This document shows, piece after piece, positions 49,697 to 50,396 of a DNA stretch of 64,000 nucleotides. Both the position numbers and the translations under genes were made by a program. The DNA lies in NCBI GenBank assembly GCA_030638415.1, contig DAOWEO010000008.1:47-64046 (forward strand), in the 5' to 3' direction. Numbering within the stretch: the first letter of the stretch is position 1; every line of letters begins with the position of its first letter. Source of the stretch: Bdellovibrionales bacterium (GTDB lineage: Bacteria; Bdellovibrionota; Bacteriovoracia; Bacteriovoracales; Bacteriovoracaceae). Under the pieces are notes generated by a model. It saw nothing but the letters and a program-made list of their open reading frames with translations, was not told the origin of the DNA and searched no databases.

Positions 49697-49953
49697 GTTA
49701 TATTCGCAATAATGAATTTGTCTGGAAAAAAATTGGTGGTGAATCTTTTATTTTAGATGTTGCAAATGAAAAATCACACTCCTTGAATGAAAGTGCAACA
49801 TGGATTTGGTGTTTTTTAGATGTGGAAAAAGAATTTGATGATATTGTAACTGAATTTCTAGTTAAGTTTGATGCTCCAGTGGAAATTGCCACTAAAGATA
49901 TTCAAAACATACTAATGGATTTAAACAATCTAAATCTTGTTATTAAACAGTGA
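49693..49953 (+). CDS. PqqD-family protein (RiPP recognition element), copy 1
   Basis: 86 aa; WKKIGGESFILD....SLNESATWIWCFLD..EFDDIVTEFLVKF........DIQNILMDLNNLNLV. ATGA overlap with the kinase stop; AGAGGAAG lies upstream. Confidence 0.7.
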   Translation: MSYIRNNEFVWKKIGGESFILDVANEKSHSLNESATWIWCFLDVEKEFDDIVTEFLVKFDAPVEIATKDIQNILMDLNNLNLVIKQ

Positions 49954-50396
49954 GTTTACAGTTACCATATTCTGGAAAAAGTATGTCTCCCTATCTCGAA
50001 GATGGGGATATCTTAAGTGTTTTTGAAACAAATGATAATTTTGGGCCAGGTGATTTACTGCTATACAAAAATAGTCTTGATAGTGAACTGATCGTGCATC
50101 GCTGCTTGTATGCAGGAATTTGTCCAACGGTGAAAGGAGATAGAAATCTTGAAATGGATGACTTTTCGGTAGATCTGTTGATTGGTCGTGTTAGCAGTGT
50201 TTTTAGAAAAGGCAGAAACGTTTCCTACATAAATAACATCTTCTGTAATCGTTTTTTGTCACTCTGCTCAACAAATTCATGCAGTGAACATGGAAAAGTA
50301 TGTCGCTATCTACATCAAGCAACTTTAATGGTGGTTATTTTTTTGAGAAAAACGATACTATCCATAGTATATCGTATTTCAGTGATGCAACGATAG
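49950..50396 (+). CDS. ER/archaeal-type (SipW/Sec11-like, S26B) signal peptidase homologue lacking an N-terminal anchor
   Basis: SGKSMSPYLEDGDIL (Ser11), ELIVHRC (His50) and TVKGDRNLEMDD match the Sec11/SipW boxes (SGSMxP..GD, IVHR, KGDNN..D). GTGA overlap with PqqD-1. Confidence 0.6.
   Translation: MSLQLPYSGKSMSPYLEDGDILSVFETNDNFGPGDLLLYKNSLDSELIVHRCLYAGICPTVKGDRNLEMDDFSVDLLIGRVSSVFRKGRNVSYINNIFCNRFLSLCSTNSCSEHGKVCRYLHQATLMVVIFLRKTILSIVYRISVMQR

Follow-up and report, generated by a model that had tools for sequence, protein, structure and literature searches.

What would a signal peptidase homolog without a membrane anchor cut when its gene shares a cluster with the gene of a 57-residue peptide? 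This question is raised by a locus in a 64,000-nucleotide stretch of DNA from a Bdellovibrionales bacterium of the family Bacteriovoracaceae (GenBank assembly GCA_030638415.1, contig DAOWEO010000008.1, positions 47 to 64,046 of the forward strand), which we analyzed as a whole and call the window; positions below are those of the window. An open reading frame (ORF) in it, encoding 148 amino acids, had been read in an initial annotation as an endoplasmic reticulum/archaeal-type Ser-His signal peptidase homolog and a putative leader peptidase of a ribosomally synthesized and posttranslationally modified peptide (RiPP). Homology to the leader peptidase LppS, a shared gene toolkit, and the spacing of the precursor peptide support that reading as a whole. 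We consider the ORF likely to encode an LppS-type leader peptidase that derives from the S26B family, is soluble or C-terminally tethered, uses Ser11, His50, and Asp70 (plus Asp64), and takes part in RiPP maturation on the cytoplasmic side. What was observed directly is set out below: homology, conservation of the catalytic residues, an N terminus too short for an anchor, synteny, and fusions to other enzymes.

Homology to LppS

Popov et al. described the linear polyphosphorylated peptides (LPPs) of Bacillota and LppS from Paenibacillus alginolyticus DSM5050 (Nat Commun, 20 May 2026; PMC13381572). The LPP core genes encode a precursor, the discrete RiPP recognition element (RRE) LppB, the HprK-like kinase LppK, the nucleoside triphosphate transferase LppN, and an ATP-binding cassette (ABC) exporter. 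LppS is the SipW-like, signal peptidase I-like (SpI-like) leader peptidase of these peptides: deletion of lppS stops leader removal, the cut after Thr-1 requires LppB, and the mutants S29A, H68A, and D93A are inactive (PMC13381572). Cleavage was shown in a membrane-free cell-free translation system, LppS prefers the modified precursor as its substrate, and the N-terminal alpha1 helix of LppS was modeled in contact with the RRE-leader sheet (PMC13381572). According to the authors, signal-peptidase-like peptidases are new to RiPP pathways and LPPs occur in Bacillota only; one unanalyzed Bdellovibrionales homolog is listed in their Supplementary Data 1, from which we took the LppS sequence (PMC13381572).

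In a BLASTP comparison, the window peptidase was 31% identical to LppS over 99 amino acids (E = 1e-11), with S11 aligned to S29, H50 to H68, D64 to D87, and D70 to D93. The family profile (see below) aligned to LppS with a probability of 99.3% in hhalign, and LppS as a query matched 118 of the 129 sequences collected. By these alignments the window peptidase is a distant LppS homolog, and its enzyme type is no longer unprecedented. The initial annotation was aware of no characterized RiPP protease of this type, a statement superseded by the work on LppS in May 2026; besides Popov et al., our literature search found no paper on LppS-type enzymes or on the Bdellovibrionota cluster.

Peptidase family and active site

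When 1.84 billion representatives were searched exhaustively with phmmer, 113 homologs of the window peptidase were returned at E values of <1e-3; 55 of these make up the alignment (A1) from which the family profile and the conservation counts were taken. The ORF translates as M(GTG)SLQLPYSGKS11MSPYLEDGDIL, followed farther on by ELIVH50RC and TVKGD64RNLEMD70D, so the boxes quoted in the initial annotation are present as described. G9, S11, M12, G34, H50, R51, and D64 are invariant in A1, and position 70 is acidic in 52 of the 55 sequences. Apparent in-frame stops in the copies of G029 and G011 were the product of alignment run-on, and both genes are intact.

Compared with PDB sequences, the A1 profile matched human SEC11C (E = 7.6e-12) and SEC11A (E = 1.3e-11), bacterial Ser-Lys signal peptidases (E = 1e-7 to 1e-5), and LexA (E = 2e-4); for the S26A and S24 families, the E values exceed those for SEC11 by 4 to 8 orders of magnitude. 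The SM-P, VHR, and KGDN boxes coincide in these alignments. The matches were found by the family profile alone: a single-sequence phmmer search of the window peptidase against PDB sequences gave no match, and the sole match of a word-indexed homolog search was the window's own mis-started protein.

Taken by itself, the window peptidase matched the NCBIfam model of archaeal-type signal peptidase I (TIGR02228) at E = 1e-5 and 25.5 bits (curated cutoff, 51.85), the SipW model at E = 0.067 and 12.8 bits (cutoff, 190 bits), and the bacterial signal peptidase I model at E = 0.07. Its sole Pfam match was Peptidase_S24, which was below threshold (E = 0.07). Among the 55 members of A1, 53 matched TIGR02228, 45 the bacterial model, 31 SipW, and 5 LexA; Pfam found Peptidase_S24 in 46 and Peptidase_S26 in 22. 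In a FastTree phylogeny of 126 catalytic domains, just 6 of 120 branches had support, and the tree neither showed nor refuted a Bdellovibrionota clade apart from LppS.

The profile ranking and the conserved boxes assign the window peptidase to the S26B (Sec11/archaeal/SipW-like), Ser-His type and not to S24 or S26A. This agrees with the initial annotation: when S26A, S26B, and S24 profiles are compared, the best match is SEC11/archaeal type and not LexA or a Ser-Lys enzyme. One could instead suppose that the protein is a chance neighbor in the cluster, either a self-cleaving regulator like LexA or UmuD (S24) or a Ser-Lys peptidase (S26A), and both the subthreshold Pfam match and the top Foldseek E values, which belong to LexA C-terminal domains, would fit. 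However, the general-base position holds an invariant His and not Lys, the protein has neither a DNA-binding domain nor an internal Ala-Gly or Cys-Gly self-cleavage segment, and SEC11 ranks seven to eight orders of magnitude above LexA by profile. The one true S24 repressor that we found (L018, in G035) was picked up in the genome search and discarded; it is an ordinary XRE-S24 repressor with Lys (VKR), an XRE domain, and an unrelated context. The invariant His and the profile ranking effectively refute this explanation.

Start codon and reading frame

Translation upstream of the GTG at 49950 runs into an in-frame TAA (49944 to 49946), so this GTG is the sole start that retains Ser11, with at most 10 residues ahead of the nucleophile. 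An N-terminal transmembrane anchor is therefore impossible, as the initial annotation had argued from the position of the serine. The GTG (49950 to 49952) shares bases with the TGA (49951 to 49953) of the PqqD1 ORF on its 5' side, which bears out the translational coupling proposed earlier. The closest relative that we found (L046; protein P0002, 45% identical) has an ATG where the window has GTG, and this ATG overlaps the PqqD stop as ATGA; the GTG start is supported by this correspondence.

The public gene call of the ORF is different. It is a protein of 137 amino acids (P0001) that begins at Met12 (window position 49983) and has lost the serine. Starts were called at the Met of the SMxP box in 8 of 114 family representatives (P0001, P0004, P0005, P0019, P0083, P0085, P0089, and P0113). 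Judged from the sequences, these starts are a systematic gene-calling artifact, and the true starts are weak codons in 4-nucleotide overlaps with the upstream gene. Annotations of this peptidase family thus need to be checked, because gene callers often delete the nucleophile in this way.

The called start, the lack of a clear Shine-Dalgarno sequence ahead of the GTG, and the overlap of the C terminus with a convergent nucleotidyltransferase gene (62 nucleotides in the window, 50335 to 50396, and 30 nucleotides in L046) would also suit a catalytically silent product, that is, a Ser-less scaffold started at Met12 or a decaying gene. We regard a silent product as very unlikely, given that residues 1 to 11 are conserved as protein in orthologs (xxIPFxGxS), that the closest relative has its ATG at the same position, that seven other database entries are truncated at the same Met, and that the catalytic residues are all intact. 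Moreover, the AlphaFold2 model of the full 148-residue product had a mean predicted local distance difference test score (pLDDT) of 91.9 and a predicted template modeling score (pTM) of 0.80, with a pLDDT of 95 over residues 1 to 20.

Compartment and fusions

No hydrophobic stretch precedes the serine in any of the 113 homologs. The top 19-residue Kyte-Doolittle means ahead of the serine are 1.3 to 1.43, and all of these come from fused cytoplasmic domains. Three kinds of extension were found. First, the peptidase domain is fused to the C terminus of a radical S-adenosylmethionine (SAM)/SPASM enzyme in two species whose proteins are 64% identical (L029:4959-6431, which equals L011:7960-9435 in G024, and P0012). 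The hydrophobic stretch of this 491-amino-acid fusion is confined to its extreme C terminus (454 to 486), and AlphaFold2 modeled the protein as one body (pLDDT, 89.7; pTM, 0.79) in which helix 326-342 runs into the first peptidase strand. Second, the peptidase follows a P-loop kinase in two assemblies (36% identical), namely L022 from a Halobacteriovorax metagenome-assembled genome (MAG) (418 amino acids) and P0049 (420 amino acids); a hydrophobic segment is absent from both. Third, P0025, P0034, P0058, and P0072 (271 to 346 amino acids) carry a long C-terminal extension, identified as a GNAT acetyltransferase domain by a Pfam scan of P0034 only.

SAM- and ATP-dependent enzymes are themselves cytoplasmic, and their fusion to the peptidase domain indicates that it is cytoplasmic too. 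The catalytic domain of the family is thus assigned, from these gene structures, to the cytoplasmic side, a location that had been offered as a possibility and is now backed by fusions to a radical SAM enzyme, a kinase, and a GNAT domain.

The C terminus is less uniform. In the window peptidase, the long C-terminal helix reaches a borderline Kyte-Doolittle maximum of 1.61 (residues 127 to 146), and the hydrophobicity of this helix in orthologs spans 0.4 to 2.7 (2.2 to 2.7 in L028 and L029, and 0.4 to 0.8 in others). A conserved R-[YFW] lies directly ahead of it. From the model, this helix could serve as a tail anchor, lie in the plane of the membrane, or offer a docking surface. The word "anchorless" in the initial annotation therefore holds for the N terminus, where no clear anchor with an outside-facing active site was predicted, and not for the C terminus, where some orthologs have a tail-anchor-like helix.

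A true secretory, SipW-like signal peptidase, tail anchored with its active site outside and processing the exported peptide or other secreted proteins, would draw on the same S26B-type homology, on the C-terminal hydrophobic helix (a segment at the C terminus is likewise a feature of SipW and many archaeal enzymes), and on the neighboring ABC exporter. This reading is also very unlikely: none of the 113 homologs has a transmembrane segment or signal sequence at its N terminus, and the C-terminal helix is nonhydrophobic in most orthologs. Where the peptidase is joined directly to a radical SAM enzyme or an ATP-dependent kinase, no transmembrane segment separates the domains, which points to a cytoplasmic peptidase domain, and the leader of the precursor is charged and of the RRE type, not a signal peptide. 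Further, the genome has its own ordinary LepB on another contig (G000:C108:22787-23395, L047; 173 bits to TIGR02227), which makes the window peptidase an accessory enzyme.

Precursor peptide and predicted cleavage site

The window precursor contains E-Y18-I-K-P21-E-I23-K-S-E-D-L-V-S-F31-G-A33, followed by the 24 residues LCNGTEIGGRKAAVPVCNTRKINS, which end at Ser57. We collected 24 distinct Bdellovibrionota precursors, of which 22 are full length and two are cut at the N terminus. A YxxPx[IV] motif is present in all 22 full-length precursors, and in all of them the distance from its Tyr to the Phe is 13 residues. The two residues after the Phe are [GA]-[AS], followed by [LV]-C-N-G. The predicted core has two invariant Cys (C35 and C50), an invariant C-terminal Ser, and Asn at +3.

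LPP leaders follow the pattern YxxPxVLxHQxIxFET/xxS, where the slash marks the cut and the Ser at +3 is the phosphorylation site (PMC13381572). In LppA, YARPMVLSQQPVRFET/AQS, the Phe likewise lies 13 residues after the Tyr, and the cut falls 2 residues after the Phe (PMC13381572). Because this Y(-16)/F(-3) spacing is shared with LppA, we predict a cut after Ala33 (SFGA/LCNG), and cleavage there is by analogy our best prediction. Ala33 as P1 is a small residue, the kind favored by signal peptidase pockets. For such a cut, the calculated monoisotopic masses are 2500.30 Da for the unmodified 24-residue core and 3826.92 Da for the leader. If so, the invariant distance of 16 residues between the Tyr of YxxP and the predicted cut is a simple ruler for predicting cores in such clusters.

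The initial annotation had suggested a possible cut after the GG of the peptide. A leader peptidase cutting after Gly41-Gly42 would free a 15-residue core, RKAAVPVCNTRKINS (1655.93 Da); the motif G-[GQ]-R-K is conserved in 24 of 24 precursors, a small P1 suits pockets of the signal peptidase type, and other RiPPs often have double-glycine leaders. However, double-glycine leaders are substrates of C39 Cys proteases and are not known as substrates of S26 enzymes, the G024 precursor has G-Q at this site, and the invariant C35 of CNG, as conserved as C50, would leave with the leader. With the spacing common to LppA indicating Ala33, we judge the double-glycine cut improbable.

Distribution and variants of the cluster

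The same gene set was found in 7 further genera of the family and, elsewhere in the phylum, in one genome from a second family, and the LPP-type toolkit of the window (47136 to 51261) is syntenic in >15 related loci. We searched 185,579 species genomes with a degenerate DNA pattern of the precursor core, and the pattern occurred on 21 contigs. Twenty of these are labeled Bdellovibrionota (Halobacteriovorax, Bacteriovoracaceae, Bdellovibrionales, Pseudobdellovibrionaceae, or Oligoflexia), and the other bears the label of a Sulfitobacter MAG although its cluster is Halobacteriovorax-like. The peptidase gene lies on all 21 precursor-bearing contigs; in two cases the locus as first taken ended short of the peptidase, and the count draws on longer stretches of the same contigs (L013 and L014).

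A complete Halobacteriovorax-type cluster (L032), with a peptidase 69% identical to that of G009, was seen on a 730-kb contig (JBLHVN010000003.1) binned as a Sulfitobacter sp. MAG; it reflects either misbinning or lateral transfer. In an unrelated organism (L040:4292-8484, ENA contig_334), we observed a precursor with a WxxP leader, a PqqD, an HprK-like protein, an ABC exporter, and an SpI-like peptidase (P0042). The radical SAM/SPASM gene of L040 is split in two frames, and the locus is a further link between radical SAM enzymes and SpI-like peptidases outside Bdellovibrionota.

Three gene orders recur among the loci: kinase-PqqD-peptidase, as in the window; kinase-PqqD-radical SAM-peptidase, sometimes fused; and kinase-peptidase, also sometimes fused. 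The first, with its overlaps, is also found in L046 and L043. In some variants of the cluster, the sole PqqD is the one ahead of the radical SAM gene. Compared across loci, these gene orders indicate that the number and role of RREs vary within the peptidase/precursor family.

Several observations weigh against a leader peptidase of the LppS type. Two concern the recognition element: a PqqD beside the peptidase is absent in L016/L021, L022, and L035, and a discrete PqqD between kinase and radical SAM genes is absent in L020, L024, and L038, where there is no room for one. Others concern the protein itself. The window protein by itself falls under the curated cutoffs given above; no Shine-Dalgarno sequence is visible ahead of GTG 49950, and a start at the Met12 ATG would yield an inactive protein. 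The peptidase lacks the ~20-residue alpha1 helix of LppS (Ser11 versus Ser29) and starts with a beta-strand at residues 2 to 6 in the AlphaFold2 model, so any docking to an RRE must differ from that of LppS. The predicted P1 and P2 are Ala and Gly versus Thr and Glu in LppA, with no Ser at +3, and the site is transferred by spacing alone. Lastly, a Foldseek comparison of the model with the PDB confirmed the S24/S26 fold but did not separate SEC11C (template modeling [TM] score, 0.50) from LexA (E = 3e-3; TM score, 0.46). The structural comparison with Sec11 suggested in the initial annotation thus settles the fold and not the subfamily, and since the fold cannot separate the two, we assigned the subfamily from the sequence profiles and from the invariant His, which occupies the place of the catalytic Lys of S26A and S24 enzymes.

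Organization of the cluster and proposed pathway

Table 1 lists the features of the cluster. PqqD1 most likely starts at ATG 49693. The last 12 residues of the window peptidase have no counterpart in the L046 relative. A scan of the locus for promoters and terminators gave nothing better than shuffled sequence. In BLASTP comparisons with LppB, PqqD1 and PqqD2 are equally weak matches (~1e-3 each), and these do not indicate which of the two RREs works with the peptidase. The ABC genes are followed closely, on their outer side, by a gene for a response regulator with receiver and cyclic nucleoside monophosphate-binding domains (window 46294 to 47055, minus strand; L046:974-1729), which may regulate the cluster.

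TABLE 1 Features of the peptidase gene cluster, in window coordinates
Feature	Position	Strand	Basis
ABC ATPase and ABC-2 permease, divergent; predicted exporter	47136..48570	-	PF00005, PF01061; syntenic in relatives
57-amino-acid precursor peptide; predicted substrate	48618..48791	+	24 distinct orthologous precursors beside same enzyme set
Y18-I-K-P-E-I23, YxxPx[IV] RRE-binding motif of leader	48669..48686	+	Fits [Y/W]xxPx[L/V/I] of lasso and LPP leaders
F31-G32-A33, predicted P3 to P1; scissile bond Ala33/Leu34	48708..48716	+	Y-to-F spacing of 13 in 22/22 full-length precursors
HprK/ScmC-like P-loop kinase	48794..49696	+	TIGR04249 ScmC and PEPCK P-loop matches; fused to peptidase in L022, P0049
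PqqD1, PqqD-family RRE	49693..49953	+	PF05402, E=8e-11; ATGA overlap with kinase, GTGA overlap with peptidase
LppS-like S26B-type (SpI-like) peptidase gene, 148 amino acids, GTG start	49950..50396	+	TIGR02228, E=1e-5; LppS, 31% identity, E=1e-11; AlphaFold2 pLDDT 91.9
Ser11 codon, predicted nucleophile (G-K-S-M-S-P box)	49980..49982	+	Invariant in 55/55; aligns with LppS Ser29
His50 codon, predicted general base (I-V-H-R box)	50097..50099	+	H-R invariant in 55/55; aligns with LppS His68 and SEC11A/C VHR box
Asp64-Asp70 codons (G-D-R-N-L-E-M-D box), predicted acidic active-site members	50139..50159	+	Asp64 invariant; position 70 Asp/Glu in 52/55; Asp70 aligns with LppS Asp93
Long C-terminal helix, residues ~115-147, hydrophobic/amphipathic	50292..50393	+	AlphaFold2 helix 115-147; last 20 codons overlap convergent nucleotidyltransferase gene
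PF14907 nucleotidyltransferase, LppN-like, convergent with peptidase	50335..51261	-	PF14907, E=1e-27
PqqD2, second PqqD-family RRE, coupled to radical SAM gene	51279..51554	+	PF05402, E=9e-14
Radical SAM/SPASM maturase	51544..52581	+	PF04055, PF13186; ortholog fused to peptidase in G024/L029, P0012

For the window system, we infer catalysis, dependence on an RRE, the position of the cut, and the sequence of events as follows. A PqqD/RRE protein, probably PqqD1, whose gene overlaps that of the peptidase, would bind YIKPEI of the precursor and present the strand downstream of it. The peptidase would cut the Ala33-Leu34 bond (P3 Phe, P2 Gly, P1 Ala), at a distance of 16 residues from the Tyr, and free the 24-residue core. 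This core would have been modified, probably before cleavage, by the radical SAM/SPASM enzyme (at the two invariant Cys), the HprK-like kinase, and the PF14907 transferase (at the invariant C-terminal Ser), and the adjacent ABC transporter would export the product.

A broader and distinctly more tentative proposal is that the Bdellovibrionota clusters form a separate, undescribed RiPP class that belongs to predatory bacteria. In such a class, the recognition-kinase-transferase toolkit of LPPs and lasso peptides would be combined with a radical SAM/SPASM cross-linker, and a peptidase without the RRE-docking helix would be physically integrated with the modifying enzymes by fusion or C-terminal helices. 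If this is true, leader removal would be coupled to modification at the inner membrane face beside the exporter.

The likely assignment to the LppS type would carry a recently proven class of RiPP leader peptidases, derived from signal peptidases, from Bacillota to obligate predatory bacteria (Halobacteriovorax, Bacteriovoracaceae, and Bdellovibrionales) and would link that class to radical SAM chemistry. The natural fusions to radical SAM enzymes and kinases are clean genomic evidence for a cytoplasmic Sec11/SipW branch and offer ready-made constructs for studying the coupling of cleavage and modification.

Comparison with known systems

The window peptidase shares with the S26B enzymes (Sec11, SEC11A/C, archaeal signal peptidase I, and Bacillus SipW) the fold, the SM-P, VHR, and KGDN...D boxes, and the His base, and these enzymes are the best profile matches of its family among solved structures and NCBIfam models. 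It differs from them in having no N-terminal transmembrane anchor and an active site predicted to be cytoplasmic, in its predicted substrate (an RRE-bound RiPP leader and not a Sec signal peptide), and in scoring below the curated cutoff (25.5 versus 51.85 bits). The difference from S26A (LepB-type) and S24 (LexA/UmuD) enzymes is the His present in 55 of 55 sequences at the position of the Lys in their xxKR box.

Another anchorless peptidase of the S26 superfamily is SodX, the maturation protease of nickel superoxide dismutase, which removes an N-terminal prosequence in the cytoplasm. Its model (TIGR02754) was weakly matched by 37 of the 55 family members, and the window peptidase itself had no match to it at E < 0.1. 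The substrate of SodX, by contrast, is the SodN propeptide, and neither an RRE nor a RiPP context is known for it.

The lasso leader peptidase B2, which works with the RRE B1, resembles the proposed system in the RRE-dependent removal of a YxxP-type leader and in that an HprK-like kinase and a PF14907 transferase are possible in its clusters (PMC13381572). However, B2 is a Cys protease of the transglutaminase fold, unrelated in sequence and mechanism, and the window cluster has no lasso cyclase. The invariant C-terminal Ser of the core in the window family recalls the paeninodin-type lasso peptides.

The closest comparison is with LppS and the LPP clusters. Neither LppS nor the window peptidase has an N-terminal membrane anchor; both clusters encode a discrete PqqD-type RRE, an HprK-like kinase, a PF14907 transferase, and an ABC exporter; and both precursors have a YxxPx[V/I] leader, Phe at the actual or predicted P3, and the same spacing to the cut, which for the window precursor is predicted. 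The differences are as clear. LPPs were described as exclusive to Bacillota, whereas the window cluster comes from Bdellovibrionota and has a second RRE and a radical SAM/SPASM enzyme. Its core carries two invariant Cys and a C-terminal Ser and not a Ser at +3, with Gly-Ala and not Glu-Thr at the predicted P2-P1, and its exporter is of the ABC-2 type and not MsbA-like. Finally, in contrast to LppS, orthologs of the window peptidase are sometimes fused to a radical SAM enzyme or a kinase.

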